From the NCBI GenBank assembly GCA_965178125.1, contig OZ237741.1, positions 496,001 through 560,000 on the forward strand: DNA of 64,000 nt. The letters are read 5' to 3'. Both the position numbers and the translations under genes were made by a program. This stretch comes from Bilabrum cf. latius (Eukaryota). The notes under the pieces were generated by a model. The model had not been told where the DNA came from. It saw only the letters and a program-made list of their open reading frames with translations, and did no database searches. This document shows positions 7,973 to 62,090 of the stretch, one piece after another (within the stretch, counting starts at the first letter, position 1; each line of letters opens with the position of its first letter).

Positions 7973-8332
7973 TAGCTTGCCCCCTCTCGCGGCATGGATG
8001 TCGGCACCAGAGCCTGGATTCTGTTGTGCTCGCACGGCGATCCAGTTTTGGTATGTCTTCGGACTGGTGCACGTGAATTGAACTCGATTGTAAAATGCTT
8101 CTATGTCATATCCCGAGATCCATTCTATGCAAACAGATCTTAATAGTTACACATAATGCAAAGCTTGCTGCGACGATCGAGCAGCTGCTCCGCCGGATCC
8201 TGGACTCCAACAGGACCTGGAGTCAACCATCGTCGCCCATGGCCTTCTTCATGTTCTCGAGGTTACGCAAGGACTTTCAAATCTCCTCTCGCTTTCTCTC
8301 CAAGCCGCTTCCGAGCTCGCGCACTTCAGCCG
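7973..8332 (-). repeat. Displaced, diverged copy of the 3' end and downstream region of the coiled-coil gene (partner 14841-15153)
   Basis: Alignable direct repeat from tagcttgc..ctctcgcggcatgg to gcacttcagccg, with substitutions and indels. Confidence 0.9.
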
Positions 8333-8897
8333 TGGCCTGATGATGCCTGGGATAGCCGTCTACGGGCAACTGTGTGTAGCGCAGACGCTGTGGCCCGGGG
8401 CGGATTGTGCTTTCTCTTCGAGCTGTGCATACTGGCATGGTGGACTTGACCTTTGTGTAGCCGTGCCGGATCGAAGGGAACCAGATCATCTATACCATGC
8501 ATCTGTATGGAGTGGTACTTGGGTGCCAAACACAATGAATCTCCCGAGTCGTGTGCCACCTTGCACCGTTCGAATCTCGCTTACTAGCGATACCCTGATC
8601 CGTCATGCGTGGATGCGGCTCGAACTGCCGTGAAAGCGAATAGTACACTTTGCAAGTACCCACCGTAGAAACTTGGCTACCCATAGCACATCCTGCCGTG
8701 CCCATCGACCTCCCTCCACAACTTCAGCCACAGCTGGGTGACTTGCGAATCAGCAGTGTCGGAGCAAGAGCAAGATCAATCGCATCGAAGGCTGACTTCG
8801 TCCAAGGTGGTGATGTACAACACAATAATGGAACAAAGTCTACGTGACGATCAAAGTGAGTCGTGAGCAAACATTCTGCAAGGCTTCTGCGACTCGA

Positions 8898-11800
8898 TCA
8901 CTGCCAGCGAGCTCTTTCCGCCAAGCAGGAGGGGTCTACAATCCTCCCGGCAGGCATCAGCTCGTCTCGGAGATCATGCTCAAGTTTTTTGGCTGCAGTA
9001 GATGCCGGCAAGCCTCCCCTTCCAGCCTCTCGTCTGGCTTTCATGCGCGCATCCAGCACACGAGCATCTGCAAAAAGGAACTACTGAAAGGCATCTCCGG
9101 TTAGAAGGTGCAGGTTGTCGTAGTCGATCACGAGTGGATTAGTTTTGGTCTTCTTTGTAGCCCCAGCGGCTGTACCTCCCGGTGCGTCTCCCCGGGAAGC
9201 CCTGTCGAAGACCCTTTCAACATCGTCTGCAAGGGGACGAGGAGTTGCCAGTAGACGGTGAGTGACCACCTGCGACTCATCCACGTCAAGCAACGCAGCA
9301 TATCGTCGGCGAGCCATGCTAGACTTGTTCTTGCCCAGAAAGGTCTTAAGATCAGCCATATTCACAGGGCTGTATCCGCTCTTCACCTGGATCCGAACCA
9401 CGTGATACTTGGGCACCGTGTCCGTCTGGCTTGCTTCTGGATCCTCTTTGAAGATCATAGTCAGATCTCCACCAAGCCTATCAGGCTCTTCCTTCAGGAC
9501 CTTATTTAGCAGCTCGTTTTTCTAGCTTGGCAGCTTGATGGCCTTGATCTTCGAAACAGCAGGCACCTTGGCTACGTAGTTGCCCTCGAAGCAGTTGCAC
9601 CGGTCGTGATCCACGGCGAACTCGTCCGTCTTCCAGACCGACTCTGGTAGTGACTTCAGAAGGTCTTTCTGCAGGACTTTCGACACAAAGTTGCGATGCA
9701 GCGACTCGGCAACCACAAGCTCGTAGTCATGACCTGGGATCATCATTGCCCAGAACTCGCGCCGAGTCAAGTAAATTCCCCGGCGAACATCGACGGCATG
9801 TGACAAGAACGCAAAAAATCCACTTAAGAACTCGAGCGAAGCAACTCCAATGGGGTTTTCCTGCGGATCACGAGGTACTTCGGCTGCGGTCCGATACCCG
9901 ATCAGTTGCTTGTTGCGCCACCCAGACAGCTTCATGAGAAACCCATCCTCAGTGAGCATGACCTCTTCTCTATGCTCTCGGATCATATTTTCCTTGTATC
10001 TGCGATGCACTGCATCCACCGAAACTTTCGGAGGAGCCTTGAAGGGGTTTTGCTCGAGCTCCTTGTACCAGTCAGGGTGCAACTCGTTCAGCTCGTCCAG
10101 CATTGCAAGCGTCACATCACGGAAGCCGTCCTCATTGTTAGACAGGCAATTCCTCCACTATTTCAGCGTATCGTGCAGGTCTGTCTCTCCACTTGATCTG
10201 TCGTTTATGCCGAGAAGGCTGCGAGCCAAGGACCCCGTCTGCCAGAGTCGGGCTTGCACCCTGGCTCTGGAACCGTATGCTGCGCGCCTCACCGAATCAT
10301 CGCTTAGCGCCCTGGCTGCTGATGCGAACGTTAGCCTGCTGGGTGTTTGCTGTGCCTGGTTTGGGTTACAGTCTCCAATACCCGCTGCCAGCTCATGTCC
10401 TTGGGCAGTATCTGAGCCAGAGGACAGAGGCTCGCCTGAGTCTGTAACTGCATCCTCATGCAATCGAACTACGCTACACACATACTCCACACTAGGATAC
10501 ACCATCTGTCCGATATCCGACCAAGTCGTGTTAGAGCTAGCTAAATCCTTCGGCACCTTGCTCAGTTCAAGCGCGAGTGCCAGCACCACGTCCTCTGGAT
10601 GCACCACGTCCACCTGAGCTGTCACTGATGCGAGAGATGGCTCATCATCTGATATTGCAAACGTCGGGACCCACTTAGAATCTAAGCTCTTGTTACTAGA
10701 CTCGAGCTGCCGGGTCATCATGAGCAGCATCTCTATATCCGTGTACTTGTACTCCAAAAATCTCGGTCGCATCTTTGACCGCTGCAAAGAGTATGCTGAC
10801 CTCTCGTAAACGACGTCCCCCAAGTGGGACGCAGTGCCGCTCAGCAACATCATTGGAAATGATGGAGTGAAAACGATGTCATCAACCGAATCCCAGAACA
10901 CTCTTTCTTGCGCAGTATAGTCGTGGGGATCCGAAATTGTCCTTTTGGCAGGACCTGAGCTCAACATTTCCTGGGCCTCATCGATGACGAGCGTGCAGTC
11001 GATCTATCGCGTACCTAGCCATTGCAAAGCATCTTTAGCTTTAAAGGCGCCTAGGGCTGGCACTGCCCAGTTCGGCAAGTCTGGATCCTACAGCAGGCCC
11101 TGCTGGTGCAGCCCTGCAGCAAGGATCGCGGTGGGTGGCGCTCTGGTCAAGGTGGTCTACATACCACCAGTCGGATTCTCCAATATCATCCCAATGTGTA
11201 TCTTGGAACCCATCGGGGCTTGGCCCTTGTAAGCCCACCCAATGAGTTGCCTGCAGAGCACCACGTTCAGCAACAACTGCGTCTTGCCAAACCCCTTGAA
11301 CCCCATCAAGACCCCGCCGCGCAGCAGCTTGGGGTTCTTTTCAAAGCTCTGCAATATGAGAGTTTGGAGCATGTCCTCTCGCTCCGAGCCAAGCCCAGTA
11401 TCAACGATTGGCAGGATTTGCAGTCCAGGCTAAGGCACCTTCGTGTCGGGTTCGACGGCATCCAAAAACACCAAGGCATCGCCAATGAGACGGAGGCAGT
11501 CCCGCAAAGCACACGCCATAGAATAACTGTGCAGCCCAGGCCCCGTCCTAACGATGTGCTGACGGACGGCCTCTTCCAGCGTGTCCGCCTTGAAGTAAGC
11601 TGGCACTTCGAAGCCTGCGTCGGTGACTAAACTGCTCACCTTAGAGACAAATTCACCTACGTTTGGGATAATTACATTGCTAGTGTCATCCAGGTAGTTC
11701 GAAGGAGGCATGCCTAGATTCTGCAGATTCTCCTCCGCTGCCTCTTTAACTCTGTGCATTGCGGCAGCGACCCTGCTCTTCAAGGCCTGCAGATCCTACA

Positions 11801-14700: not shown

Positions 14701-15043
14701 GTGCTGCAATGGTATGGTGTGGGACACAGCCGGCACTTCGGAACTCCTGGGCAGTTCAGCCGAAAGGGTAGCCCATCCCGAAATACGGATTATGGCTGCC
14801 CATGTGGAGCTGTTGCAGGATGATCCATCATGCAATAAGGTAGCTTGCTCCCTCTCGCGGCATGGTTGTCGGCACCAGAGCCTGGATTCTGTTGTCCTCG
14901 CACGGCGATCCAGTTTTGGTACGTCTTCGGACTGGTGCACGTGAATTGAACTCGATTGTAAAATGCTCAGTGTAGGCTTTCTTCATCAAGTCAATGCAAA
15001 GCTTGCTGCGACGACCGAGCAGCTGCTCCGCCTGATCCTGGAG

Positions 15044-16999
15044 TCAGCCATCGTCGCCCATGGCCTTCTTCATGTTCTCGAGGTCCCGCAAGGACTTTTG
15101 GATCTCCTCTCGCTTTCTCTCCAAGCCGCTTCCGAGCTCGCGCACTTCAGCCGCGATCCGGTGATGCTCGGCGGCGACGCTCACCCCGCCGAGCACCACG
15201 TCGTTGGGCGTGCTCTGCGCGAGGCCGCTGGCAGCGCCGTCCTCCACGGGCGGCTGTGGCGCAGCCTTGGTGGGCGCCGGCGGAGGGGACTCGACGGCCA
15301 GATCTCCTGCAGCCCCTCCCCCCTGCCCCTCCCCGCCCCCGTTGCTCTCCTGCCCTGCCTCCCCCCCACCCAGCTTGGGAGCCAGGGCAGGTGCTCCGAT
15401 CGAGTCGGCCACCGCGCCCATGTCGTTTCCGATGGACCGCACCATTGCCTGCATCTCTCGAACGAACTTGTCCGCGTCCTCCTGTGACAGCGCAGGGCCG
15501 CCATCGGCAGCCGCGGCCGCGGCTGCGGCCGCGCTCGAGTCGGTTGCTTGGCTCCGTGACCCTGTTTGGCCTTGGTTCTGGCCCTGCTGCTGGGAGGCAG
15601 CGGACACTGCATTCGGCGCAGCGTTGCTGCCATCGGTGCCAGCACCGGCACTGGAAGAGGCGTTTCCCGCTGGCTTGTTGCTGCTGCTGGCGGCCGTCGA
15701 AGAGGCCGACTTGTTGGTTGCAACCGGCGCCGAGCTGCGGGGCGGCGGGGGTTGTCCTTGCGCGGCGGCGGCCGTGCCCTTGTCCGTGCCCGCCTTCGAT
15801 CCACTCATGCCGGCTGCACCGCCACTCGCGGCGCTTGTTCCCTGGCCTCCTTGCTTCGGCTGCTCCTCGCGCGGGATGTACCCGGCTCCGCTTCTGCGGG
15901 CAGAGGCCAGAGCCGCAGCTGCCTCGCCTCTGGCAGCTGCAGCCGCCGCCAGCTGCTGCGTAATTCTCTCGCGCTTCTGCGCGGCGACTTGGAGGTCCTT
16001 CTGTGCCTGCTGGGCCTGCTGCCTGACGTGGTTTGCAACCAGCCGCAGCCTGGACACGGACTGCCTGCTTTTCCTGAGCGTCTTCGAGAAGGCGGTGTGC
16101 AGCCCCAGCGCATTTTGCGCGCTGAGTTTGCCCCTCAGTCGCGTGGCCTCCATGACGAGCGTCTCCCTGTCCTCGGCAGACTGCCTTAGGGAAGCCTCCT
16201 CCTCCTCGGACGCCTTGATGCTGCGGCGGGCGGAATCGATGTGCTCCTGGAGCTCCTTTTCCCTCGACTAGGAGGAGGACTGAAGGTCCGTAAGGACCTT
16301 GAGCGTGTTTTTCTCGAGCTCCGCTGCGGTCTTTCGTTCCTTCTCCGCTTCTTCGCGGAGCTTCTGCAGCTCTTGCCGGAGACTGGCGGTCTGCTCCTCG
16401 GCAGCCTCTGCCTCTGCCTCGGCCTTGCGCCGCTCCTCGGCTGCCGCGCGCGCGCGCTCCGCGACCGCGTCCTTCTTCTTCTGCGCGTCTTCGGCGGCGG
16501 CACGGGCGGAGTCGCGGCGGCCCGCCGCGGCCACGAGGGCTGCCATGGCCGCCTAGTTCGAGGCCTGGACCGCTCCGACCGAGGCGGTCAGCTCCTCAAG
16601 AACCTGCCTGCGCTCCTGCAGCAGCTCGGCAACGGTTTGGCCCTGCTCTGCAGCAGCCGTTTGGGCGGCCGTGAATGGGCTCAGTGCATCGGCTGCGCCG
16701 CCCTTGCTGCTCGTCTGGGCTGGGGAGGCCGAGGCGTCAGGTGGGTGGCTTCCAGGTTCGTCCACGCTCTGTCGCGCCGTGTGAGAGGCTCCCGGAGGAG
16801 AAGCAAAGTGATCGGCTGTTTTCTACGGCGCAGACCGCTTGCGGGCTTCTGCTTCGCGGGCGCGAGCTGCCGCGAGGGCGGCTCGTCTTGCTTCGCCAGC
16901 TCGAGCAGCGGCGTCGTCTCTCGGTGCAGCAGGAGGCTTCCCTGCCGGCGAGTCTTTCCTCCTCTCGATTCGTTGCAAAAAATCAGCAGCAGATGCCAT
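15044..16999 (-). CDS. Low-complexity coiled-coil protein of unknown function
   Basis: Track ORFs 16823, 16553, 16268 and 15044 are in one frame joined by TAG; A/E/K/Q-rich heptads; TGA stop. Start MASAADFL inferred. Confidence 0.7.
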
Positions 17000-18279: not shown

Positions 18280-19218
18280 TCACCCCTCTGCGCCCATGCG
18301 CCTCCGATGCCGATACGCCACGAATGCCACGAACGCCAGCAGCACCAGCAGCACGAGAGCATCGTCCAGCAGGCCAAACACCCCAAACAAACCCTCCGGC
18401 ACGATATCCAGAGGAGACAGAATGTAGAGGAGCAGAACCCCAAGAATGAGCAACCGCCTACAAGTTAGGATGGCCTGTACCACCAGGTGCGGGTGTTGCA
18501 GCGCTTGGAATGCCACGTGGGGCAGCTCGGCTGCTGCCCGGTGCCAGGGCCGGCCGTCCAGCAGGTGCTCGTGGCGCCGGTTGAAGTCTCTCAGCCTCTG
18601 CATCACAGCCTCCCCCTCTCCCCCCTGATCGTTCTTCTCCTCTTCCGTGAATTCTTCGACGAGAGAGTGCACGACACTGCGGCACATCGGGCATGTTGGC
18701 CTTCTGAGATTCTCCCCGTCCACGTGTTCAAATACCGCCAAGATGCAGTTGGTACAGTAAACGTGGCCGCAGTTGGTGATTGCAGCAAAGTTTGGCTGGT
18801 CCAGGCATATCGGGCAGTCTCCGCCTTCGTTGAATCGCTGCCGAACGCCCTCGCGTTGCTCAGCAGCATCCTGCTCGTCCTGCTCGTGCTCGTCCTGCTC
18901 GCCGCCTTGGCCAGCACCGCGGTCTGCGTGAGACCCCGCCCTGCGGCGTCTTGCTCCGTTATTAGAATCATATCTCGCATCATAGGCGCCTTCCTCATCG
19001 CCGAGCTAGCCGGGTTCCTCCGCCTCGTTGATTGGTTCGTGTCCACGTTGCTGCTCTGCGCCATGCTGTTCTGCCTGGTCGTTCTCGGGCCGGTGTGGCG
19101 GTCTTGCGATGAAGCGACTCGCCATGACCAGGGCTGCAACCAGTATGATGCCAAAGACTGATATTGCTGGTAAAGCTGCGACGGATAGAAGAAGGCAAGT
19201 GACAGATGTCTGGACCAT
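18280..19218 (-). CDS. RNF170: RNF170-like membrane RING E3 ligase (N-terminal TM, C3HC4 RING, DUF1232)
   Basis: CPICLD..CGHVYCTNC..CPMCR; YILSPLDIVPEGLFGVFGLLDD; one in-frame TAG at 19006; TGA stop. Confidence 0.85.
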
Positions 19219-19443
19219 GCAATGCTACGTTTCTATCAATTGCCATGTCGTCCTGGTGTGTGCGTGCTCTCACCGTTTAGGACGTCCTCCCCCAAGCCAA
19301 AGTGACTTTCAATAATCGTGGCCTTTATCTGTGCTTCATGTTGCATGCGAAGTATGAAAACAGCGCAAAGCTGGTCTTGATATCGACAAGACCCGGAATT
19401 CGTGGCCAGAATACAAGCCCCGTACCGTTCACAACGAGCACGA

Positions 19444-21072
19444 ATGGTCGAATGCATAGCAGCATCAAGCTTATAGACATGCTCTCTACGTGTTGCGTAG
19501 CAATTAAAGCCCGGGGATGGACTTGCCATCATCGCATGTCCGCAAAGAGCCTCTGCTGAGGTCGTTGCTGCCACCACTGCAGCTGTTGTGCCAACATATG
19601 CACTCTAGGGTGGAAGTAGCAGTGATTATGATGTCAAACAGATGCATTCTAGCGGGCTCGTCATTGTTGGTACCCCAGAGCGGCTGTGGCATGCGTTGCA
19701 GCACGCAAAGTCTTTATCGCCTGTACAGTCTGTCGCAGTTCTCAACCCCTCAGAGTGCGAAGAGGTCGGGCACGGCAAGGCCGTGCGCGGCATTATATCA
19801 TTGCTACTGTCGTCGGGCACTTTAAAGGGCGGCGTACGCAGCATTACAGCCCTTGCGCTCACAGAAGCAGGGGTTGGAACCGAGGAGACCGTTCGAGCAG
19901 AAACTGCGGCAAAACTAGAACAATTGATTGCACCAGACGCTGGATCAACCCAGACAATAAGACCCAGCGCCACAGTTTCTGGCAGCGGGCCTACCGTTGC
20001 CACGGCCGCCGCAATGCTGCCACCGCCTGCTCCCACCCGCTCGCGGTCCGCGAGTGCAGCTGCCCTAGGGTCCCCGACCGACCGAGAGGGCGCCCGGAGG
20101 ATGCGGCACTTCTTCGTCCTGCCGAAGACGTCTGCAGAAGGTACTGTATCGGCAGACGGCGTGCCGACGACGAAGTCGAAGATGGAGAGTGCGATGCACC
20201 CGGCGTGGGCCAAGGCAAGGCTTGCTGGCCTCGGCGCCGTCAGGCCGCACCACCCAGAGGCCCTGGTGGCAGGACCCGGAGCGAAAAGGATTGATTTCTC
20301 CAGCGGGGGCGCGGGTCACCATGCTGCCAGCGAGAGCGGTGGGCTGCATCGCACTGTGGCGGAGAGCGCTGCGATTTCCGCCCGCATGATTGCTGCACTG
20401 TGGGACCAGCTGTCCATGGCTCAGACCGTCGTCTTCGCCGCCAGCAGGCGATAGCTCGTGCTGATCGCCGATGAGCTGGCGGCCATGGAGATCGACTGCC
20501 AGGCGTGGTCACCGGACTTGGAAGAAAAAGAAAAAGAAGCAGCGCTCTCCCGGTATCGAACCGGGGAGTGTCGAGTGCTGCTCGCTACAGACGCGCTGGT
20601 TCGAGACCCCCAGGTCCCGTCTGCCGGTTGCGTGTTGCACTGCGGTGTCCCGCTCGCACCGGAGGTTATGCGGAAGCGGATTTCTGTGCTTCGTCCCAAG
20701 GAGGACGGGGAGGCGGCCAGCGTGCTGCTGCTGGCGGCGGGGGCCGGCGATTAGGGCTCAGAAGAGGCCGAGGCCGCGCGCGCGGTGGAGATCGTCAGGG
20801 CGTGCGTGGGCTTCGGAGGAATCGCGCTGGCGAGGGGCAAGGGCTTGCGATCGGTGCGCACCGCGCTTGAGATATTGGAAGAGGAAGAGGAAGAGGAAGA
20901 GGAAGAGGAGGAGGATGAAGAGGATGGGGATATGGGCGATGGCAGAACGGAGCGCAACGCAGAGGGCAGCTTGCGGTCGGATGCGAGCGAGGAGGACCTG
21001 GCAGCCTGCTGCATGGACAACGGGCTGATCGCGCCGCTGCCTGCCAACGGTTCAGCTTGGATTGTGGTATGA
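19444..21072 (+). CDS. Degenerate DEAD-box (eIF4A-like) helicase-fold protein
   Basis: IVGTPERL, QTVVFAASRR, YRTGECRVLLATDAL. Track ORFs 19642, 20458 and 20785 are joined by TAG; TGA stop. No recognisable Walker A or DEAD motif; start uncertain. Confidence 0.65.
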
Positions 21073-21206
21073 CGGGACGGTAGCAAGAACCCGATCGGAT
21101 CGGGGGGCGGCTGAGCTTCCGGTTTGTGTCTGCAGGGAGCGCGAGGGTGGAACGTTCATCTCTGCCCGGTATTTTGCGCCCAGAAAGAGTACTCGGATCC
21201 ATTTGA

Positions 21207-46906: not shown

Positions 46907-49198
46907 TCAGACGGCGTCCCAGATCTCGCAATACAAGTCGATAATGTCTCCCAATCGCATAGGCCTGGGCAGCGTGTAGGTCCGCTGCAACTTAGCCAGC
47001 TCCTCCACGATTTCGTCGATGTCGTCGTCCGATAGCGGCGGGGCGTCGGGTTCCTGCGTCAAGGGTCGGATGAGCCAGGCAGACCGAGTGGCGTGCCAGT
47101 TCAGCAAGCCGGCGTTGAAGAAGCCACCCTTCGTGCCATGCGGGTACCAAGGATCCCTCACGGCCCCGATTGCCTGCTGCGCGAGCTCCAACGATGCAAT
47201 CTTCATCTGCGGGGGCACAACCGTGCTCGGCTTCTTCGCCTTCCCAGCATCGCCACCCTCCCCCGCCTTGTCCCCGTCTGCCACGGGGCTCCCAGGGGCG
47301 ACCCCCTTGGGCGCCCCCGGCGCTGTCGTAACCGCAACGGGCCCTCCCCCGAAGTTGTATCCGTCGTCCGCTTGCTGGGAGGCCAGCTCCACGATCTGCC
47401 CCTGCCCCGTGCCCGTGAAGGATCCCCAAGTACCCCGCATCGTGCGGTAGAAAGCCCTCTCGTCCTCCTCCGCGCTCTCCGCGCCTTTGGCCAGGGCTGC
47501 CGCTTTGGCCATGGTCCAATCGCCCGCCTCCTTCCCGCTGTAGACACCCCCCTTGTGCGCAGCCTCGCTCCCCCCGGCACCCGCACCTGCGCCGCTGCCA
47601 CCCGCCTTGCTCTTCCCAGCGCCCGCGCCCGCGCCGGCCTCCAGCTCTGCGTCGTCCTCGCTATCCGCGTCAGCCACTGCCGCAACCAGCGGCATGCCTC
47701 GCTCGATCCCGGCCAGCGCTGCCAGCATGAGCTGCCTCACCATGCGCCGGTCGCCCGCAGGCTCGATGGCCGGCCTCGCCAGGGCGGCGGGAAGGACCGG
47801 AAGCACGGGGGAGAGGCCGTCTCCGTGCTCCGTCCAGAACTTCACCAAGTCGTCCCTGAAGTACTTGGCTGGCGTGCCCGCTGCAGCAGCGTCCCCATCG
47901 TTCCCTTCTCCAGACTCGGCCGGCTTGGCACCGATGGCTGGCTCGATGGCACGCGCTGCCACCACGACGGGGTCCTGGGGCTCTAGCTTCACGCAGCAGA
48001 TGGCGTGCAGGGGCGTGTGCACCAGCACCGGCCCGCTATCAAACCCGTCTCCCCCGAGCGAGTGGTCGCACAGCTCTTCCACCACGTGCTCCATGAGCTC
48101 GGCGTCCTGCTGGGCGAGCTGCTGGACGTCCACACCCAGCACGAGGCCAAGGGCCCTGGCAGCGTCCACCGAAAGCTCCTCCCCCACCGAATCCGTGATG
48201 TCCACCTGGCTGTCCACGCGCTCCACCCAGGGAACAGCCATGCCTTGGTCGCAAATCTCCCTGGCCAGGGGCACCCCCCCTGGCTCCAAGTCGCTGGGGT
48301 GCACACGGTGCCCGTTCCGCTCGTACAGGACCGCATGGAGCCTGGCTCTAAGGTCAAACACGCCAGACGCGGCGTTCCGAAACAAGAGCATGGTGCCCCG
48401 TGGCCTTGTCAGGCTGAGCAGGAGCTGCGCGCAGCTGAGCTCCTGCGCCTTCCTGAGCGGCCCCGGCTGCCACGTCTCAGCTGCCACTTTGAGCGCGGGC
48501 GCACTTGCTCCGTTGCCCGCTTTCTCGGCATCTTTCTAATCGCCCTTAGGACCACCCCCTCCCTCCCCGCTATCGTCTTCTTCCCCGGTCGCGGCGTCGG
48601 GCACGAAGCACCTCGACAGACGCCAGAGCGACGAGTGCACGAGGTCGAACCGACCCAGCGCGCTGGCAGGGTCACCCCCTGGAGAGGCGGAGGAAGAGGG
48701 CGCCGCGTCTCCGGCCCGCGAGCCGGTAGCGCTCGAATCCGCTCCTTCAGATCCAGGCGACCCCCAGTCCTCCGGCAGCTCCGGCAGCTTGCCGTCCCAG
48801 CTCTCAAACGCCTTTTGCACTACGACCACGCAGTCTGCCAAATCTGGATTCTTCTGCATCATTTTCTGATAAATCCGGGCTCCACTCACGACTACGTATC
48901 GCAGGTTGGGCCGACGCGACCTGAGTAGCCGAGCAATCTTGGCATCGTACTCGGGGCTGCCATTTTCAATCGCCAACACCCACAGGGGGTCTCCGCCATC
49001 CTTCATCTGCTGTACCTTGGACCTAAACCATTCCAGCTGAGCATAGTAGGCTGCGGAGCGACGAAAAGCATGAAAATCTATCCACGACATGAGCGACAAG
49101 CACGCAATGACCGCAGTTGCAACAAGCAGTGCCCCCCCCAACACATGGCCGCGTGCGATACAAGACGGACATTTGCAGGAGCACATCGTCCATACCAT
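46907..49198 (-). CDS. Protein with N-terminal TM and C-terminal DUF4050/Gag1-like clamp domain
   Basis: FFNAGLLNWHATRSAW...LPRPMRLGDIIDLYCEIW; track ORFs 48536 and 46907 are joined by one TAG; TGA stop. Confidence 0.7.
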
Positions 49199-50898: not shown

Positions 50899-51622
50899 AT
50901 GCTCTTGACGCGACTGGCGACACCGGGCGAGCAACCCAGTCGCCAGCGACCGCGATTCGACCGGGACAAACAGCAAAACTTGTCAAACATAGAAGTAGCC
51001 AGACCACGCGTGGTGGCATGCCAGTTGACACAGCCAGGAGAGGCCCTGATGCACGGCCACCACCAGAAGCCACTGAGGCACGAAGGCCTGGCCCCTCTTC
51101 ATCGATTTCACCCAGCTGGCTTCAGTAGCGTACATCCACAGTATCCTGCCAGCGACTGATCGACTCGATCGACCCGTTCGGGGTGAATGACAGCGGCGCC
51201 ATGTAGCTGAAATCGTGAGCCTTAATCCGGTCAGGTGCGCTCTACCACCTGTCCCCGAACAGCACCCAGTCACTCCCAGTGTGCCAAATAGTGCCCGTCT
51301 GTGCCATCCAAATACTGGATCCATTCCCTGGGTATCTAGCGATCTGACCCCTGTACTCGTAGTCCCCCATCGGAGACTCAGACGTGTACACCTCCACGCC
51401 CGTGCCGGCACCGCAGAAACAGCAGCACTGCCCGATTATGACGTAGTACAGCCCCCCACGCTTGAACATAGCGACTCCTTCTAGGTTCCCAGGTCCGATG
51501 GTTGGAGACACGGCGGCAGGAGCTGCTGGTCCTAGCAGGTCCGGGGTCAGCTTCTGGACGTGATTCACGTGAGTCGTCTCGTGGGTGAACGCGACGTACC
51601 CTCCCCATCATCGTCTGCAAAG
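50899..51622 (-). pseudogene. Displaced, truncated copy of the GH43 gene 3' end plus downstream region (partner 61451-62090)
   Basis: Direct repeat; FADDDGE/YVAF carries a 1-nt frameshift near 51600; no 5' half recognisable. Confidence 0.8.
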
Positions 51623-52587
51623 TACACAGAAAAGGATACGTGTATACGATATGGGCTCGTGATAGCGGATGCGCACTGGTGTGTTTACCTGTGTTTAGGG
51701 TAGGTGGTTGCACTTTTTCCCCTGGCAATCTCACGATGGCTACACGGGCCAGGCCACGGCAATCCACTGCAGCGCCATGACTGAGCAGTACTTTATTACA
51801 GTTATTGGAATTGTATCGCGCCGTGTATCCTAGAGTGACATGGTCGAATAGCCTGTAGTCAATAAGTAGTCGGTGTGGCTTCGATTCATCCTCAAGGAGA
51901 GCTTGAGGATGCAATCAGGACCGACACTCCCCTCCTCTGCGCATACCGACACAGCTACTCGAATCGAAACCCACGAAGCAAGCCGCTTCCAGGAGATCGT
52001 CTGCGGTAGCGCCGTTTCAGCTATTTGTGCTATCGATCACATCTCGCGGACAGCGGAAGAGTTGAGATTGAGATGGTTGCGGCATCGTGGTAATGGTGGT
52101 GCATCGAATCACTGGGCGCGGCGCCGACCAGGTTCCGCTACTCCGCGATTTTAATACGGAATTTGAAACGAGCTGGCAGGCCAGGACGATTCAGCTGATA
52201 CAGCTTCTGAGCGGTCCCACCCCAAGCCCCTCGCAACATCTAGCCTCGTACGTGAGATGATGCATCTTACTAGTACTCCATATACCACGCGTTCTGATGC
52301 CGTTTGGCAATCGTATCGTTGGTCCATGGACGCCAACTGGTGGACTGCAGTGAAGAGCCAGGACGCATCTACACTTCCCGCAAGACTTGTCGGTATAGCC
52401 TAGCGCCACGAATCAAACACGACCCACCAAATGTTTCATGGCAGTTGCACACTGCCAGCTCCAAGCATGGTATCCTGCGAGTGCCGCCAGGCTTGTTCCT
52501 TCACTGCTCCGACTCGATGTTGCTCCATTCACTTGAGTCATGCCCTTCGAAGCATCGCAGCTGGAAAAACCGCATATTAACAAAAAA

Positions 52588-55218
52588 ATGCCTTCAACGT
52601 TTGGCGCGAAGGCATGCCTGTGAGGATAACGATTGGACTGTGAATCGCGCGCAGCGGCGTACACCCGTCTTATCTCGCGCACCTGACAGCATTGCTAGGC
52701 AAAGCCATGCATCAAAACCGTATGTTGTGAATCCTCTCTATTTGCTTGTCGCAGCATCCTTGCGGCGGCCATGGTGGCTGCCCCAACTGCATTCGCTGCG
52801 AGCGGGTCCAACGCGTCTCTAGCTCGAAGGCCGGACCTCGAAACGGCTGTGGCAGCAGAGCGCTCTTTGATGCAAGTGCTGAGTACGACAGTAGCTAACT
52901 TTACTGTCAAATCTCACCAGAAGATCTCCAATACGGAAGGCGGCTTCACCGGCGAGCTGATCAGTGGTGACGAGTTCGGATCTTCCGTGGCATCCCTGGG
53001 CGACCTGGACGGAGATGGCACCACCGACCTCGCAGTGGGGGCAGCCTACCATGGTGATGGATTCATCAACCGCGGGGCAACTTGGATCCTCTTCTTGAAC
53101 ACCAACGGCACCGTCAAGTCTCACCAGAAGATCTCCAATACGGAAGGCGGCTTCACCGGCGAGCTGGACAGAACTGACTACTTCGGATCTTCCGTGGCAT
53201 CCCTGGGCGACCTGGACGGAGATGGCACCACCGCCCTCGCAGTGGGGGCAATGGGTGGTGGTGATGGAGGGCCTATGCGCGGGGCAACTTGGATCCTCTT
53301 CTTGAACACCAACGGCACCGTCAAGTCCCACCAGAAGATCTCCAATACGGAAGGCGGCTTCACCGGCGAGCTGGACGATTATGACTAGTTCGGATCTTCC
53401 GTGGCATCCCTGGGCGACCTGGACGGAGATGGCACCACCGCCCTCGCAGTGGGGGCACGCCAAGATGATGATGCGTAGAGTGCCAGCGGGGCAACTTGGA
53501 TCCTCTTCTTGAACACCAACGGCACCGTCAAGTCCCACCAGAAGATCTCCAATACGGAAGGCGGCTTCACCGGCGAGCTGGACAGAAATGACTACTTCGG
53601 ATCTTCCGTGGCATCCCTGGGCGACCTGGATGGAGATGGCACCACCGCCCTCGCAGTGGGGGCAATCGGTGATATTGATGGTGGAAACAATATGCGCGGG
53701 GCAACTTGGATCCTCTTCTTGAACACCAACGGCACCGTCAAGTCCCACCAGAAGATCTCCAATACGGAAGGCGGCTTCACCGGCGAGCTGGACGATTATG
53801 ACTAGTTCGGATCTTCCGTGGCATCCCTGGGCGACCTGGATGGAGATGGCACCACCGACCTCGCAGTGGGGGCAACTCGAGATGATGATGGACGGGACGA
53901 TCGCGGGGCAACTTGGATCCTCTTCTTGAACACCAACGGCACCGTCAAGTCCCACCAGAAGATCTCCAATACGGAAGGCGGCTTCACCGGCGAGCTGGAC
54001 GATTATGACTACTTCGGATCTTCCGTGGCATCCCTGGGCGACCTGGATGGAGATGGCACCACCGCCCTCGCAGTGGGGGCACGCCAAGATAATGATGGGG
54101 GGGATAAGAGTGGGGCTACTTGGATCCTGTTTAATGACGTAGTATTGCCGTCGCCGTCGCCGTCGCCCACCCCAAGCAGCAGTCCGACCCCGAGTAGCAG
54201 CCCCAGCACCTCGCCCACGCCGAGCACCACCAGCAGTCCCAGCACCTCGCCCACGCCGAGCACCACAAGCAGTCCCAGCACCTCGCCCACGCCGAGCACC
54301 ACAAGCAGTCCCAGCACCTCGCCCACGCCGAGCACCACCAGCAGTCCCAGCACCTCGCCCACGCCGAGCATCGCCAGCACCGATAGTGTCACGGGATTGA
54401 CATGCAGTGACGGCGAGACCAACTTCCAGGAGACCGATATTGACTGCGGGGACGCGTCTGCTGGTGACTGTCCCTTGTGCTCCCAGGGCAGGACCTGCAT
54501 TGTCACAGCCAACTGCGCAAGTGGACTCGTGTGCTCGGCCAGCAGCAACACGTGCACTGCTCCTATGAGGCCCAGGGGCAGGCGCATCACGGTGTCCAGG
54601 ACCAAGGTGTCGAGCGTGACCACGCCCATCTTCCAGTCGAACCTTCTGGCTCCCTTCGTCACGGCGATCGGGGATGTCGCCAGAAGTGATGATGTAGTCA
54701 TCGACCGGCTGACCACGTCTTCGACCAGCAGGGGCCGCTCCCTTCAGGCCTCGGGCTCAGAGGAAAATGGCGTTTCCGCCACCGAGCTGGACTTCACCGT
54801 AACAATTCCGCTGGAGCGCACCGACGTGGATCAGACGAGGCAGGACATCCTGGCCTTCCTGCGGGGCATTATGACCACGTCCGAAGATGATACGCTGGTG
54901 GAGGTGCTCAGAATGGCTGCGCCCGCCGAGATGGCCCCGCTACTGGCGGTTGATACGACCAGTATTGCCGTGGAGGTCACTGTACAAGAAGAGGACCTGC
55001 AAGTGGAGGAGGCTGTAGCTCCTTCTACGGACGAAGATGACGACGAGGGAGGGGCCAGCATGGTCATCATCATCGTGGTGGTGGTCGTCGTCATTGCCGT
55101 CATTGTGGGAGCAGTCACCTACTTCTTCAAGTGCAGGAACACCAAGCCAGGGATTGCCAAGAAGGACGACAAGGCGGTCGATGCGAAGGAAGAGCATCAG
55201 GTAGCCGAGGCCGTGTGA
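52588..55218 (+). CDS. Type I membrane protein: FG-GAP (integrin-alpha-like) repeats, PST stalk, Cys-rich module, TM; intron 52620-52754
   Basis: Spliced signal peptide MPSTFGAKACL|ILAAAMVAA; six FGSSVASLGDLDGDG..LAVGA repeats of 207/210 bp; three in-frame TAG; ETDIDCG module; TGA stop. Confidence 0.85.
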
Positions 55219-55503
55219 ATTGGCCTTAGCCAAAACTCGAAACCCCGCTGCTCGGAAGAAGGTGGCGCTGGTCATCAGTGCTGCCCCGCAAACACGCTTG
55301 GTGCATCGGGCATTTCGTTATACGCCACACCACATGGAATGGGCCGTACGGGGAGGCGCTGGTGGCGACGGAGTACCGTCGGAAGGTTCTGTTTCAAATT
55401 GGGAGTCGGAGCGCGCGGAGAGTTCCGGTTTGATCGGACCGTGGAGATCCGTCGGTTGTAACTTGCCGCGATACTTTCGTCACACCAAATTTGGCAAGCA
55501 ACG

Positions 55504-57311
55504 ATGCGCAACAGTTTCAAAATATCCATGCACCGGACTAGAAAGAGAAAGCGAGCGGCCCCAGCAGACCGTCTAGGTCGAGTTGTTCGATCAACTCGCC
55601 TGGGGAAAGCGTGGGAGGATGCCAACGTGCTTGCACACAGTATCAGGACGGCGCTGCACGAAGAAGTTCAAACGGTGTGCGATGCCAAAGCGATTAGTGC
55701 ACCTGTTTCAGACAAAGCACTGCCCGGTTTTCTTGAGGGTGAAAAGTATAGAGACTTTGCATGGCAATTCTGCAAAACTTGGAGGGAAAAATCTATTTCG
55801 GGGACGAACTGGGGGGTGCAGGCACGGCTTCGTGAGATGGCTGCGACTTCCGCGGATAGCATAGTACCGAACCCTTCGACCCTGTACAGGTGGAGAGACA
55901 AATTCAATGAGGCACGGCTTTATGGATATTGTGAGGTGGGGACAAGGAAGCTTTGTTGGCCAGCTGAGGTTCTGTTCGCGGAAACTGTACGACGCCGTGC
56001 AGTTGCACGTCAATCTATGACAATGCGGGAGCGTGGTCAAACACTGGAACGTTTGCTCGTCTGATGCAGGAGGTAGGTGAATCTGTATTGGCTACCCGAA
56101 GAAGGCTTGCCAAGGCCGCTCGCGATGCGAAGGACGAGGCCAGAGCTCTGAAGATCGAGGACCCGAGCAAGTGCCCCGCCGTGCTGATCATGGACAACCT
56201 CGGCATCCACTGCACTGAGATAGCAAAGCGAGTTGCTAAGAAGTACGGAATAAGGCTTGTGTTCCTTCCCGCAGGACTGACTGACCAGATGCAGGTGCTT
56301 GATACGCACATCTTTGCGGCCTTCAAGCGTAAGCTCAGGGCGAGTGTGCGCTCCTTCCAGCGAGCTCTGCGCAAGGTCAACACGAGGAGGATCCGCAAGC
56401 TACAGGCCAAGTACCAAGGTGCTCCAGTTCCAGAGAGTGAAAAGCCTCCTCGAGTGAATCTTGACGAGTCGCTAGCCCCAGCCATCGTGTACGAGGCCTG
56501 CCACGGCGCAATCCTGAACAGCACCAACGCGAGCAAGGGGTTCGAGGACAACGGCCAGTTCCCGCTTGACCCGACCAAGCTGATCAGCCCTGCAGACTGG
56601 ATCCACCTACAGGAGAAAAAGGTGCTGCCGACCCAGGCAGACAGGCTTATTTCTCCAATTCTTTTGCTTGCAAGACGAGAGGCCGGGGCGCAAGCGGCGG
56701 AGGGGGTGGATGTCCTGTCTGCCGATGACATTGTTGGATCCTCGACAGTGCTGAGCGCAGCCGCGTCATCCAGCAGCAGCAGCAGCAGCAGCAGCAGTGC
56801 AGCGGCAGAAGAAGCAGCAGAAAGTGCGTCTGAATTGACGAGCCCCTTTGCTCAAGCTATACTTGGGCTGGAAGTCGACACAGATGATGAGACAGATGAG
56901 GATGAGGACCGACCATCTCAGGCGAAGAGGCCCCGCAGTGGAACTGGAGCCGTCGTTGATCGAATCGTAGGTGGGACTGTGGCAAAGGAAGTCATGCCAA
57001 TCATGGAGAAGGAGATGCTATCCTAGCCGGTGCCTGCATCTGTGGTAGATACCAGGAACAGGTAGGGTGGCTTTGTTGGGGGGGTTCGAGAGCGGCTGCT
57101 ACAGCACCGCGCATTGGCCCCTGGGACGATGCGCTCCGCCTTGGCAAAGGCAGAGACGAAGGCGAAAGCTCTACAGACTGGAGTTACGTTTCTTGAGGCA
57201 TATGTGTCTGCCTACATGGGTGCAGATGCGGCTGCGCCGATCCTCGCGCAGGCACGCCAAGCCATGGACGACATTGATGGAGGCGATCGGGTGAAGGAGG
57301 GAAGACAATGA
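55504..57311 (+). mobile_element. Defective pogo/Tc5-like DDE_1 transposase
   Basis: HTH-like PSTLYRWRDK; frame change at 56064; VLIMDNLGIH..LVFLPAGLTDQMQVLD..FAAFK. First catalytic Asp region not seen; TIRs not identified. Confidence 0.7.
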
Positions 57312-60072
57312 TAATAGATCAAACATATTTCAATTAATAGACAAACCATATCGTCTAAGGCACCTTAAATATCGATTTGTGAAACTGTTGCACATCGTTG
57401 CTACACTCATCACACAATTGCGGCGCCGCGCAATCCCCCCCAGGGCCCTGCTAAAGCTAATACTTTGAATTCACTGTTTACCCTCTTACTGAGCTGCTCT
57501 GGCGACGAGAGCCGCCGCGATGGATTCGCAAGCGTCGAATTAGCCGGATTGTGTTGATAATGGACTCCGAATCCCTTTTGTCGCCGCGCAAATCTCTGAT
57601 CCGGAACCGGCAAAAACCAGAAAAAAGTGTTGCGTTCCGTTACATCCGACGGATGTGGCGCTGGAATCGTGGCACCTTGTTGGAAGCACGCGCACCAACC
57701 AGCGCAGAAAGAGAGACGCCTGCAGCACAAAGTAACATACACTGAGTGCAGAAGGCGTACAACATAAGTTGAGTTATAGCTGACATCTGAACCTCCTCTT
57801 CGTCGAGGAAGCCACGGGTGGAAAAAATCACCTTCTGAAGTATGCATCTGTACGGTCTTAGCTGAACTCCGAAATCGCCGATTGGGCCCTCCTCGCGGGG
57901 CCTTGTACAAAGTACCAGTGAGCATTTTCGAGTATTTGATGACGTTTATTGATAAATATATGGTTTTATATCATGAATATGTGGTCTAATTTTGCCAGAA
58001 ACGTCTAGAACGCGAGATATATGGGCCCAAAGAGAACTGTTTTGGCCTCGACCGCCGTTGGTGAGGCCAGCAAGGTCTCTGAGATTGAGGTCGCGCGGTG
58101 GGCGCAGGACCCGCTCGAGGTGCAGGAGCAGATGCGACGTAGCGATGCGAGGAGTGAGAGAGAAAGAAAGCGGCTAGGGATGCAGACCAGGAGAGGCGGC
58201 GACGCGGGGTGGGCGACGGATGGAAAGGGGGGTGGTGTGGGTGGAGCAGAGAGAGAGGGCGAGGGATGGGGGGGGGGCGGAGCAGAGAGAGAAGGCGATA
58301 GATGGGCGGGGGGGCAAAGCAGGGAGGAGGGGGGGGCGGCGGTTCACCAAGTGGGGAGGAAGCAGTGGAGGAGAAGATGAGTGGTGGGGTCATCGGGTTG
58401 ATACGGCGGATACAAAGGGGGAGGCACAGGCCGGGCAGGTGGGGGTTTGGGCATGTGGGGGACGAGTGACTCGGGTCAGGGGGGATCGGATCACCGACCA
58501 CATGCGGATGTGGAAGTTGAGAGGTCACAATTAGACTCGTGCGGCAATCAAGCCGCGTGCTATTCGGGCGCTGAGGGGCAGCGCTCGCCAGTTTTCTTTT
58601 TGGTAACTTTGAGGATGGGCTCTCGGAGGAAACCAACTGCAACCATGTGTGACTGTCTGCGAGATTAGGGTGCTGTGTACAACGTGTGATCTCAGAATCT
58701 GAAGCGAACCTCTTGGGAGTCCCATTGTTCGCCCCATTTCTTGTCTGTTTATGGGATTGAGCCTCCAATTTTCACGCAGTTATTAGATAAAGGGTCAAAT
58801 ATTCATGTCAGCAATTGTTGATACATGTACGGTCGTCAGAGCCCATCCACATTCCTTGCCCGGTCAGTCAGAATGCGCCGCCGCTTTCCGGGTCGATCCA
58901 CGACCTTACTTTCCGCTTTCTTGCCCCGTGCAACACAACCAGAATAATGTCCTTCTATTTTGCTTGTATTTCTTTCCCCCGCTTTCTGCTCGACCGACCT
59001 AGTCGGTGTCCAGCCCATTTTCTCGCACACGGCTCTTCAGTGCCCGGACCATTGCGCGCTGCCCCCACAGCTCTGCCTGCGCCTATTCACGCGGTTCAAT
59101 GCTGGACACTTTCCTTTCCTCTTGCCCTCAAACTGTTCTCGCAGCTCCTTCATATACTAGTCATTAAATGCCTTTTTGCCCTCTTTCGATGCTGAACTCG
59201 CCTACTTCCTGTCAGCCCTCTCCTGGATCGCTTTTCGCTGGCTCAATACAGTACTCTCGGCCGCGTGTAACTCATAAGCCCCCATATCTTCCATTTTTTG
59301 GCGAGAGCTAGCGCGGTTGATGAAGTGCCGCGCACCCTCTGCCGCTGTAAATGCAGTAGCGATGGCACCAGCCTGCATCGTCTGAACATCATCCCACGTA
59401 GCTCATCTGCTCCTTTGAAGAACTTACTACCATGAGTCCGCCTGGATACACTATCCTATGCTACTGCCTCACTCAGAAAGTGACCAGAATTCAGACTAGC
59501 ACCCAGATCGCCCAAATTCATGCTGAGGCCTGCCCTGCCCCCCCGGTGCATTGCCAAGTGGCTGTCGATCCGACCCGTGGGGTAGTCCTGCTGGCATGCT
59601 TCCCGCTGACGCTGGGTGAAGGACTGCTTGATACAGTGATGGGTGGCCTTTCTATCGACCCAATTCTCGCCTCTTTGCCCATGATTGTATCTTTTAAGCT
59701 GACGAAGCTACGCGGAGGTTGGGTTCTGGGTCAAAGAGTTGAGTCGGTGCTTCTGGATCTCGACCACCTCCAGCTGCCGCCTTATACACAGCGCCTCTCG
59801 GGTCCTTTTGAGCGCCTTCCAATCTTTGCCGATCGCCTCCGCCTCCCCCTCCTCCTGCTTGTTCTTGAGCCGCCTGGACTTGGTCACGACGTTATGCTTG
59901 GCCTCCCCGGTCGCACGGAGCACCAGCTTGAGTATCTCGAACACCCCCACTCCGTTTCGTTCAACAGTCTATCCTCTCCTTGCTCCTTGTCCCCGATAGG
60001 CTTGGTATTCGGCGATCACCTGGGCAGCCAAGCTGCAGCCACATCCTGCTGACCAGCAGCACTGGAACAGCA

Positions 60073-60465
60073 GGAGGAGGAGGAGGAGGAGGAGGAGGAG
60101 GAGGAGGAGGAGGAGGAGGAGGAGGAGGAGGAGGAGGAGGAGGAGGAGGAGGAGGAGGAGGAGGAGGAGGAGGAGGAGGAGGAGGAGGAAGAGGAGGAGG
60201 AGGAGGAGGAGGAGGAGGAGGAGGAGGAGGAGGAGGAGGAGGAGGAGGAGGAGGAGGAGGAGGAGGAGGAGGAGGAGGAGGAGGAGGAGGAGGAAGAGGA
60301 GGAGGAGGAGGAGGAGGAGGAGGAGGAGGAGGAGGAGGAGGAGGAGGAGGAGGAGGAGGAGGAGGAGGAGGAGGAGGAGGAGGAGGAGGAGGAGGAGGAG
60401 GAGGAGGAGGAGGAGGAGGAGGAGGAGGAGGAGGAGGAGGAGGAGGAGGAGGAGGAGGAGGAGGA
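60073..60465 (+). repeat. (GGA)~131 microsatellite
   Basis: Pure GGA run with two AGA interruptions at 60190 and 60295. Confidence 0.98.
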
Positions 60466-61675
60466 GCAGCTACCCCCCTTCAGACATGTCCTGCTCTCCG
60501 GTAGCCCTCAGTTGCGCGATAGCATGTCCCTACGACCTAGTGGCCTCCTCTGCGGCTGCAGCAACATTTGCTTCGGCAGCTGCAGCTTGCTCACTCTTCC
60601 TCTTTGTCACTTCTTCGCCAGCCTAGAATATAAGTACACTCATGGCTATTAATCAAGCGGCGCTCACGATCGGGAGGAAAGTAGCAGTTTGTTCCAGTCC
60701 GGCCGGTTCCCGTTCACTTGGGACAGCTCCTTCCCGCAGATGGCCGCGGCCAACGAGCGGTACAGTTGGAGCATGGTCTGATCAGATTAAGATTAATTCT
60801 AGATCTACTTTACCTTCCTTGCCAATTTTTACCCGGCCGGTCATTGGTTTCACAGTGGTGACCATGCCCAGCCCGGCCGTTGTCACAACGGCGTTGTGAG
60901 GACCGTGAACCATAGTGAGGCACATACCGTCTCGACAGACAGTTTCGGCTGCCCTTGCCAAAAATTACGAATCTCTGTATACATTGATGCCCAATGATGC
61001 TGCAAAATGATATCCTCGCACCATTTCTGCGTCACTTCGAACAGACGTACACATTCGACGTGGGCCTCGGCTGCCGCCACAACACGCCTCAACTTAGCAT
61101 CTCTCGTGCCTACACAGGCAAAGAATTTTTAAACTACTTTTTACTGTTGTAGCATAGTTGGACTCCCAATTCACTCGAAATTTATGGAGGTATTCGGCGA
61201 TAAAGTCAGAGTTCAGCTATGCCGCCTACATAGTTATGCCGCCTACATAGTTGGTATTAAGGAGACAGAGTCTGATTCGTTGTTGACGTCAAATGAGATG
61301 ATAAGCGTCTGTGCGATGAGAATGGCTCTGCGAAGAAGGAGAACGCGGCAACACCTTGTCGAACGAACGAACGAATCTTGATTTGTCCGTAGGTGGGAAG
61401 AGGAATTGTAGCGTTAGACATCGTAATCTGATTAACGGAAGAGGCAGACCATGCTCTAGTCGCGACTGGCGACACCGAGCGAGCAACCCAGTCGCCGGCG
61501 ACCGCGATTCGACCGGGACAAACAGCAATACGTGTCAAATACAGAAGTGACCAGTCTACGCGTGGCGGCATGCCAGTTGGCACAGCCAGGAGAGGCCCTG
61601 ATGCACGGCCACCACCACAAGCCACCGAGGCACGAAGGCCCCTGGGCCCTCTTCATCGAGTTCACCCAGCTGACT

Positions 61676-62090
61676 TCAGTAGCGTACATCCACAGTATCC
61701 TGCCAGCGACTGATCGACTCGATCGACCCGTTCGGGGTGAATGACAGCGGCACCATGTAGCTGAAATCGTGAGCCTTAATCCGGTCAGGTGCGCTCTACC
61801 ACCTGTCCCCGAACAGCACCCAGTCACTCCCAGTGTGCCAAATAGTGCCCGTCTGTGCCATCCAAATACTGGATCCATTCCCTGGGTATCTAGCGATCTG
61901 ACCCCTGTACTCGTAGTCCCCCATCGGAGACTCAGACGTGTACACCTCCACGCCCGTGCCGGCACCGCAGAAACAGCAGCACTACCCGATGATGACGTAG
62001 TACAGCCCCTCACGCTTGAACATAGCGACTCCTTCTAGGTTCCCAGGTCCGATGGTTGGAGACACGGCGGCAGGAGCTGCTGGTCCTAGC
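61676..62090 (-). CDS. 3' part of a GH43-like glycoside hydrolase gene, interrupted by the AT-rich insertion
   Basis: NLEGVAMFKREGLYYVIIG*CCCFC, AQTG, FGDRW*SAPDRIKAHDFSYMAPLSF; TGA at 61676. Confidence 0.75.

Follow-up and report, generated by a model that had tools for sequence, protein, structure and literature searches.

Pairwise alignments, self-BLAST and statistics on a 64,000-nucleotide stretch of the genome of the eukaryote Bilabrum cf. latius (assembly GCA_965178125.1, contig OZ237741.1, positions 496,001 to 560,000 of the forward strand; this whole stretch is called the window, and position 1 is its first letter) confirmed three pairs of direct repeats, each of which contains the end of a minus-strand gene. 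We favor, with a probability of roughly 0.4, the reading that these repeats are three separate and old short-range duplications made at the DNA level and that they do not form a class of mobile islands. In each event, a piece of 0.31 to 0.64 kb, consisting of the last codons of a minus-strand gene, its TGA stop, and some downstream flank, would have been copied in the same orientation to a spot 6.8 to 11.5 kb away. The landing sites would be boundaries of the intervening DNA: between a PEPCK gene and the DNA that separates the copies of pair 1 (block 1), between a GT4 glycosyltransferase gene and the corresponding DNA of pair 2 (block 2), and, for pair 3, at the border of a repeat element and an AT-rich block. 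Such copies most likely arose when breaks were repaired or replication switched templates and a nearby stretch was used as filler; the orphaned copies are not retained as coding sequence, and parts of them have probably been rehomogenized by gene conversion with the parent copy. How the pieces were copied, which way copying went in pairs 1 and 2, and the gene conversion are matters of inference. An earlier reading made from the sequence alone (here, the original prediction) had correctly picked out all three pairs and took them for the borders of islands that enter by a new insertion route, deliver conflict genes, and keep the target gene intact.

Copying of a fragment covers all three pairs because pair 3 cannot be cargo in a target gene. 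The repeat of pair 3 carries the end of a GH43 gene, whose full-length relatives are about 340 to 350 amino acids (aa) long (69 matches). When 5 of these 69 homologues were used as tblastn queries against the window, matches were obtained at 51125-51601 (residues ~195 to 351) and at 61679-62089 (residues ~217 to 351), the GH43 sequence continuing past the left copy as far as 51601 (residues ~195 to 216). A third, frameshifted remnant lies between the copies, and tblastn placed the first ~150 residues nowhere in the window. The GH43 gene is a pseudogene, split between residues ~188 and 195 by a 3.7-kb block (51602-55289) that holds an FG-GAP gene. Because the interval itself contains upstream GH43 remnants, the left side of pair 3 is the original locus and the right copy the duplicate, and for the same reason an insert flanked by a target duplication is excluded here; pair 3 must be either a copied fragment or the beginning of a second tandem unit. 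At every site, according to the original prediction, an orphan lies on the left and the right copy runs on into an intact gene; this is true of pairs 1 and 2 but is reversed in pair 3, whose gene is fragmented and dead, so an architecture described as recurring three times recurs twice. The left copy of pair 3 had also been drawn to 51622, and homology ends 86 bp short of this, at 51536. No long duplication flanks the 3.7-kb FG-GAP block that interrupts GH43, so block insertion need not make one, and the arrangement of repeat, block, and repeat is by itself no proof of insertion, because any distant direct copy can be drawn in this way.

The spacing of the copies is 6.8 kb in pair 1, 11.5 kb in pair 2, and 10.55 kb in pair 3. 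Permissive blastn and tblastx searches detected no homology beyond the repeat ends in flanks of about 2 kb, and inverted repeats of at least 100 bp were absent from the window. Each repeat contains a true stop (TGA at 15044 in pair 1, TGA at 34904 in pair 2, and the end of the GH43 frame in pair 3), as had been proposed; in pair 2, however, the apparent kinase stop, a TAG at 34922 that had probably been taken for the end of the gene, is read through and the true TGA (34904-34906) follows 18 bp farther on, still within the repeat. All gene ends are given with TAG read as glutamine, a reading taken up below. The orphan of pair 1 lies at a junction of convergent genes, between the stops of the PEPCK gene (7717) and of a 1136-aa gene (8898), and that of pair 2 at another, 75 bp past the GT4 stop (23315) and 70 bp past the stop of a 2454-aa gene (23772). 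The orphans are unconstrained as coding sequence, because that of pair 1 has acquired an in-frame TAA (together with indels of 21, 5, 2, 6, and 17 bp), because that of pair 2 shows 3 nonsynonymous changes and 1 synonymous change in 99 codons, and because the coding part of pair 3 shows 2 of each kind. By tblastn, no other remnants of the kinase, coiled-coil, GT4, or PEPCK proteins were found in the window. Identity is also patchy along the repeats: of the pair 3 differences, 18 fall in the 220 positions of the 3' flank and 5 in the 418 of the coding part (Fisher P = 1.6e-5), with no clear surplus of synonymous changes, and in pair 1 the two parts differ at 4 of 127 and 20 of 247 positions (P = 0.08). 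This patchiness, together with variants common to the copies in a diverged relative, is a pattern of concerted evolution and points to gene conversion. By eye, none of the orphans has an A-run at its distal end; an RNA-derived retrocopy of the 3' end was rejected because the copies lack A-tails, keep the same orientation, and lie no more than 11.5 kb from the parent.

Sequencing reads bear on the age of this structure. Four of the five runs found were checked over 18500-38499, a stretch that covers pair 2 only. Contigs of runs X2, X3, and X4, all from one study, cross all four junctions of pair 2 (23390, 23702, 34894, and 35206) and break inside the repeat, as k-mer contigs must. Depth in X2 was 25.9 and 29.8 in the left flank, 30.3 and 31 in block 2, and 30.1 in the kinase gene; since depth is equal across the locus, block 2 is single-copy and not hemizygous. 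Contigs of X1, a metagenome from another study, diverge from the window by 9.4 to 10.6% in the left flank, by 7.1 to 8.6% in block 2 (27517-32523), and by 7.3 to 7.6% in the kinase and dehydrogenase region. The X1 depth bins cover most of block 2, including 23836-24502, and X1 contigs end within the repeat at 23428 and near 35121-35142. Among the contigs listed, four from X1 with a summed depth of 37.8 (single-copy, ~12) have two variants in common (34994 and 34999), neither of which occurs in either window copy; those copies agree with each other there. The X1 relative thus holds block 2 and probably also the repeat duplication, and the copies seem to evolve in concert. Flank-equal depth and the presence of block 2 at flank-like divergence in a relative that is 7 to 10% diverged suggest an old block that has become fixed, and nothing points to an empty allele. 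The haplotype misjoin and the empty site that the original prediction had proposed to look for did not materialize at pair 2: the contigs cross all four junctions at equal depth, and block 2 stands at flank-level depth in X2 to X4 and is present in X1, with no empty allele seen among the contigs, which would not reveal a rare one or a circle. Two joints suggested by X1 contigs, 23607 to 37558 and 20272 to 29605, were not used because they have short sides or lie in low-complexity sequence. No close relative was available for a comparison of synteny; a PEPCK scan of metagenomes returned 80 loci, all at 62% identity or less.

Several points weigh against the reading as local duplications. All three pieces include a stop, for which we estimate a chance of about 0.1 × 0.1 × 0.2 = 0.002 (a rough figure based on ~20 gene ends in 64 kb); filler copying leaves this 3'-end bias unexplained, and we know of no preference of filler insertions or template switches for gene 3' ends. 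Neither junction microhomology nor another repair signature could be demonstrated by eye. The final structure of pairs 1 and 2 is identical to that expected from insertion of a block with a long target duplication, and the window does not tell the order of events. Runs X2 to X4 are probably the assembly's own data, the read support concerns pair 2 alone, with pairs 1 and 3 outside the read check, and the case for age and gene conversion comes from one relative, seen as short k-mer contigs through their ends, their depths, and two sites. The coordinates on which the argument draws are collected in Table 1.

Table 1. Repeat pairs, genes, and other features of the window (gene ends with TAG read as glutamine)
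Feature	Position	Strand	Description
Pair 1	7973-8346 / 14841-15167	-	374/327 bp; 24 mismatches and 51 gap columns in 376 columns; 80.1% identity
Pair 2	23390-23702 / 34894-35206	-	313 bp; 6/313 mismatches; 98.1% identity; sharp ends
Pair 3	50899-51536 / 61451-62090	-	23 mismatches and 2 gap columns in 640; 96.1% identity
PEPCK (ATP) gene	6425-7717	+	Convergent with pair 1 left copy; its stop precedes the repeat by 256 bp
Pair 1 left copy, orphan	7973-8346	-	Last 40 codons, TGA, and ~250 bp of downstream flank of the coiled-coil gene
Block 1 gene, 1136 aa	8898-12308	-	10 in-frame TAG; GFGKT P-loop-like and DEAQ motifs by eye
Pair 1 right copy	14841-15167	-	True 3' end of the 687-aa coiled-coil gene
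Coiled-coil gene, 687 aa	15044-17107	-	Stop TGA at 15044-15046
GT4 glycosyltransferase gene	21207-23315	+	Convergent with pair 2 left copy
Pair 2 left copy, orphan	23390-23702	-	Last 99 codons, TGA, and 10 bp of the kinase gene
Block 2 gene, 2454 aa	23772-31136	-	22 in-frame TAG; AAA ATPase domain, then five 207-aa units
Second block 2 gene, 805 aa	31628-34045	+	9 in-frame TAG; no family match
High-copy dispersed element	34117-34533, 61252-61435, 58055-58131		Depth ~28 to 48 times that of single-copy DNA in runs from two studies
Pair 2 right copy	34894-35206	-	Genuine C-terminal tail of the calcium-dependent protein kinase, with its TGA (34904-34906)
Alcohol-dehydrogenase-like and calcium-dependent kinase frame	34904-38581	-	Parts joined in frame by TAG; kinase and EF-hand parts form the "host gene" of pair 2
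Pair 3 left copy, parent side	50899-51536	-	GH43 residues ~217 to 351, stop, 220 bp of flank
FG-GAP repeat membrane protein gene	52771-55218	+	3 in-frame TAG; six near-identical 69-aa units; inside the split GH43 pseudogene
Third GH43 remnant	55290-55375	-	Residues ~154 to 188; frameshift; combined E = 5e-5
Partial DDE_1 (pogo-like) transposase frame	55968-57311	+	Sole transposase-like match in the window
Pair 3 right copy, orphan	61451-62090	-	Same GH43 3' piece, cut at 62090 where DNA of 31% GC begins
AT-rich block with tandem DUF285 (BspA-like repeat) genes	62091-64000	+	30.6% GC; begins exactly at the end of pair 3 right copy
In-frame TAG, kinase/EF-hand joint	35945-35947	-	
In-frame TAG, GH28 gene	44110-44112	-	
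In-frame TAG, FG-GAP gene	53803-53805	+	
In-frame TAG	51242-51244	-	

A doubtful, though appreciable, alternative is that insertion of a block (6.5 kb in pair 1, 11.2 kb in pair 2) between convergent genes produced a long target duplication, either at a break with nicks 0.31 to 0.37 kb apart followed by fill-in or through a template switch that resumed behind its point of departure; selection that kept only those events leaving both gene ends whole would then explain the 3'-end bias. Joining the left flank, one repeat, and the right gene would give, in either pair, closely spaced convergent genes, the stops of GT4 and the kinase then being 85 bp apart (95 bp in the convergent genes g45 and g46), and the GC contents of the two blocks, 54.2 and 55.8% (56.2% in the interval of pair 3), lie below the 60.1 to 61.6% of the flanks. 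There are also precedents for flanking duplications of hundreds of bases. As given in the parts of the reports available to us, insertions of the long interspersed nuclear element (LINE) Dualen in Chlamydomonas have flanking duplications with a median of 900 bp (PMC9977147), R9 is cited there with a target duplication of 126 bp, a 250-bp flanking duplication is described for HERV-K (PMC5488345), and Replitron-1 insertions have target-site duplications of variable length (PMC10288648). The Dualen median runs counter to the argument of the original prediction that repeats of this size are too long for target duplications. Insertion of blocks leaves pair 3 unexplained, however; the blocks hold neither a LINE nor another enzyme, the single-copy state of block 2 means that no donor copy is visible, and the sole insertion that can be demonstrated in the window, that of the FG-GAP block into GH43, made no long duplication. 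Large non-transposon insertions are moreover less common than small duplications, which weighs further against this alternative. In-frame TAG density is 3.7 to 11.2 per 1000 codons in the block genes versus 0 to 10.2 in the flank genes; since the densities match, the block genes have evolved under this genetic code for a long time, and they are native, compositionally slightly apart. The intervening genes are lineage-specific and repeat-rich, encoding a P-loop protein, an AAA ATPase with five repeat units, and an FG-GAP membrane protein.

It is unlikely that the blocks are islands that move without an integrase, each as a circle that carries a gene 3' end and integrates by a single crossover to give repeat, block, and repeat, from which the block may loop out again. 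One crossover would yield all three geometries, including that of pair 3 if the circle had carried a slightly longer GH43 piece, and the repeats are long and similar enough to recombine; that they could permit excision, as had been suggested, is true in principle, their lengths being recombination-capable. The signs of gene conversion mean that the copies interact, and the block genes come from fast-evolving families. These observations are set against the lack of an empty allele or of half depth for block 2 in the sequenced strain, the flank-like divergence of block 2 in a relative diverged by 7 to 10%, the absence of ends or genes common to the blocks, and the decay of pair 1 to 80% identity with indels; nor does a circle explain how it first captured the 3' end of its target. 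We consider slightly less probable still the fuller form of this idea, in which fast-evolving, lineage-specific blocks enter and leave as circles by crossover at gene 3' ends, the host gene staying whole and gene conversion keeping the repeats competent. If true, such islands would be a eukaryotic counterpart of those of bacteria and would bear on the spread of accessory genes in protists.

The search for mobility genes covered 256 stop-to-stop open reading frames (ORFs) of at least 100 aa and 22 long frames with TAG as glutamine, among which no integrase, tyrosine or serine recombinase, reverse transcriptase, or HUH enzyme was found. No ORF between the repeats matched the RVT, rve, or gag families, and no endonuclease family was found there. 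A captain tyrosine recombinase of the Starship type gave no match, and the partial DDE_1 frame sits in the middle of the pair 3 interval, whose contents are the FG-GAP protein, this frame, and simple repeats. Self-BLAST revealed no sequence common to the blocks except pieces of the high-copy element, and terminal inverted repeats were found neither in the single block junction region scanned nor by eye. With no mobility enzyme, no common ends, and native TAG usage, the proposed new route for delivering conflict genes finds no support in what could be tested here. Among known elements, a long terminal repeat retrotransposon was ruled out because no gag or pol lies between the repeats, and a Helitron-like or terminal-inverted-repeat element because matching ends were found neither by eye nor in the inverted-repeat scan of that one junction region. 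A Dualen-like non-LTR insertion would fit the length of the duplications (327 to 374, 313, and 640 bp), but the blocks consist of large single-copy genes without retroelement enzymes.

About as unlikely as integrase-free islands, and mainly of interest for pair 3, is the view that the repeats are remnants of larger tandem duplications, with a unit starting at the left end of the repeat and one copy mostly lost or interrupted. In pair 3 the unit would measure at least 10.55 kb and its second copy would be cut at 62090 by the AT-rich block; the right copy does end exactly where the DNA of 31% GC begins, and the rest could lie past the window. The genome also makes and homogenizes tandem repeats, as the five units of 615 to 627 bp in block 2 (94 to 100% identity) indicate. 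Pairs 1 and 2 have no second segment of homology in the window by blastn, tblastx, or tblastn, however, and the DNA to the left of each right copy is unlike the region upstream of the parent gene. Finally, an assembly artifact, in which haplotypes or overlapping contig ends were joined and their common piece doubled, is very improbable overall and excluded for pair 2, for although the right copy of pair 3 has a high-copy element on one side and an abrupt change in GC on the other, a setting prone to misjoins, the pair 2 junctions are all crossed by X2, X3, and X4 contigs with block depth equal to flank depth and not half of it, in none of the three pairs do the flanks of the copies resemble each other on either side, as those of alleles would, and the AT-rich block reads TAG as sense like the rest of the window.

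The AT-rich block contains five in-frame TAG codons in its DUF285 genes, which suggests that it belongs to the same organism or to something that shares its code; a viral origin was considered and dropped, as 9 pattern matches in viral contigs yielded 0 confirmed cases. The high-copy element on the other side of the right copy of pair 3 (61252-61435) ends ~15 bp before that copy and is oriented opposite to the one at 34117-34533, which lies 360 bp to the left of the right copy of pair 2; 34344-34450 matches the reverse of 61252-61360 at 96%, and the consensus of loose ends from the read contigs matches the reverse of about 61396-61425. The element seems to be a mosaic of sub-parts, with loose ends at 34117, 34187, 34328/9, and 34533, and neither coding capacity nor clear terminal repeats were seen in it.

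Among the block genes, the 1136-aa protein of block 1 had no Pfam, PADLOC, or PDB match and no homologue of near its length. An exhaustive search of public assemblies returned 36 relatives, all of them fragments of 96 to 575 aa with 31 to 87% identity; the six that were looked up were all unnamed and on short contigs, and 19 of the 20 scanned had no Pfam family, the remaining one giving a weak P-loop-type match. The protein belongs to a lineage-specific, diversified family. Its C-terminal part is possibly nuclease-like by eye. In the 2454-aa protein of block 2, the AAA domain was also matched by the PADLOC IetA and TRIP13 models, and the 207-aa units are encoded by the five tandem repeats of 615 to 627 bp (24298-27087, minus strand), four of which are identical (100%) over 300 bp, as would result from a very recent amplification or from strong homogenization. 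The units look SPRY-like by eye and have no Pfam match.

In the kinase gene of pair 2, the HRDLKxxN motif is split in frame by ~40 codons (AHR ... DLKLEN, at about 36500-36650, minus strand), and the Pfam domain is likewise in two stretches; the break is probably a small in-frame intron. The dehydrogenase-like and kinase frames are joined by a single TAG (37361-37363, minus strand) with no TGA or TAA between them, so that either they form a fusion protein or TAG also terminates translation in some contexts.

The window uses a rare genetic code. Under the standard code nearly all of its genes seem fragmented, whereas reading TAG as sense gives long frames of 312 to 2454 aa with uninterrupted domains; 26 ORF-boundary codons were examined, and those joining two parts of one gene in frame were all TAG. 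Altogether, 94 in-frame TAG codons fall in 17 gene models (14,107 codons), which end in TGA (15 of 17) or TAA (2 of 17), and reading TAA as sense joined no additional gene parts. TAG is a sense codon in this eukaryote, very probably read as glutamine, because at the column of the TAG in the GDRW-TAG-SAPD motif of the GH43 fragments all 23 homologues aligned (out of the 69 found) have Q. Reassignment of UAG alone to glutamine is known in a few ciliates and in Iotanema, according to the part of the report available (PMC11687900). Amoebophrya sp. ex Karlodinium, which also has in-frame stops, was considered as the source and rejected, since its genome is 65% AT and it reads through all three stop codons (PMC12005148). 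The correction affects every annotation of this genome.

Eukaryotic genes of the window include those for ATP-dependent PEPCK, the calcium-dependent protein kinase with EF hands, a GH28 polygalacturonase, a RING protein, the GT4 glycosyltransferase, and an AAA ATPase. The genome is GC-rich, at about 57%. Gene ends are tightly packed also at g45 (+) and g46 (-), whose stops span 46812-46907. An (AGG)n microsatellite at 60072-60466, with ~132 units and 98% purity, gives poly-amino-acid runs in every frame. No tRNA match was found in the whole window and no Rfam match at the gathering score, hence no known RNA gene lies in the repeats. Inspection by eye of the DNA downstream of 20 stops, aimed at the native 3' untranslated region of the kinase gene, revealed no convincing common poly(A) signal.

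On the whole, the structure is of an ordinary kind, apart from one bias that stays unexplained. The results are consistent with a compact genome in which convergent genes lie less than 100 bp apart and short pieces that hold gene 3' ends were copied to block boundaries in the vicinity, conversion maintaining partial identity. The preference for 3' ends could point to repair linked to transcription termination or to selection for whole convergent gene ends.

Known systems resemble parts of this picture. Prokaryotic integrative islands rebuild the 3' end of the gene they enter, which may be a tRNA, a tmRNA, or in some cases a protein gene, and pairs 1 and 2 share with them a direct repeat of the target 3' end, an intact gene on one side, and an orphan on the other. 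The likeness drawn by the original prediction stands as far as this geometry goes; here the host is a eukaryote, there is no integrase and no sign of presence/absence variation at block 2, the repeats are longer, and pair 3 does not fit. Mobile ORFs of fungal mitochondria supply the gene they enter with a new 3' end, while the old one persists downstream as a pseudogene, and this recalls the gene body with its attached 3' end, the foreign ORF, and the orphan 3' end; they are organellar and driven by homing endonucleases, whereas our blocks are nuclear, 6 to 11 kb long, and without such an enzyme identified. The duplications made by Dualen, R9, and HERV-K are, in the available parts of those reports, likewise direct, hundreds of bases long, variable in length, and specific in sequence to their site, but the insert is a retroelement, while the blocks are large single-copy genes with neither reverse transcriptase nor endonuclease. 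Templated insertions of the type attributed to fork stalling and template switching or microhomology-mediated break-induced replication (FoSTeS/MMBIR), as far as the sources at hand describe them, differ in that the pieces here all include gene 3' ends and have no demonstrable junction microhomology; they match in consisting of a few hundred bases from a nearby template, with sharp ends, no enzyme of their own, and one-off sequences. Concerted evolution of dispersed paralogues usually concerns gene families or ribosomal DNA and here would link a functional 3' end with a nonfunctional orphan 7 to 11 kb away; as in that process, the copies are more alike than their inferred age would suggest, their identity is patchy, and variants are shared within a lineage.

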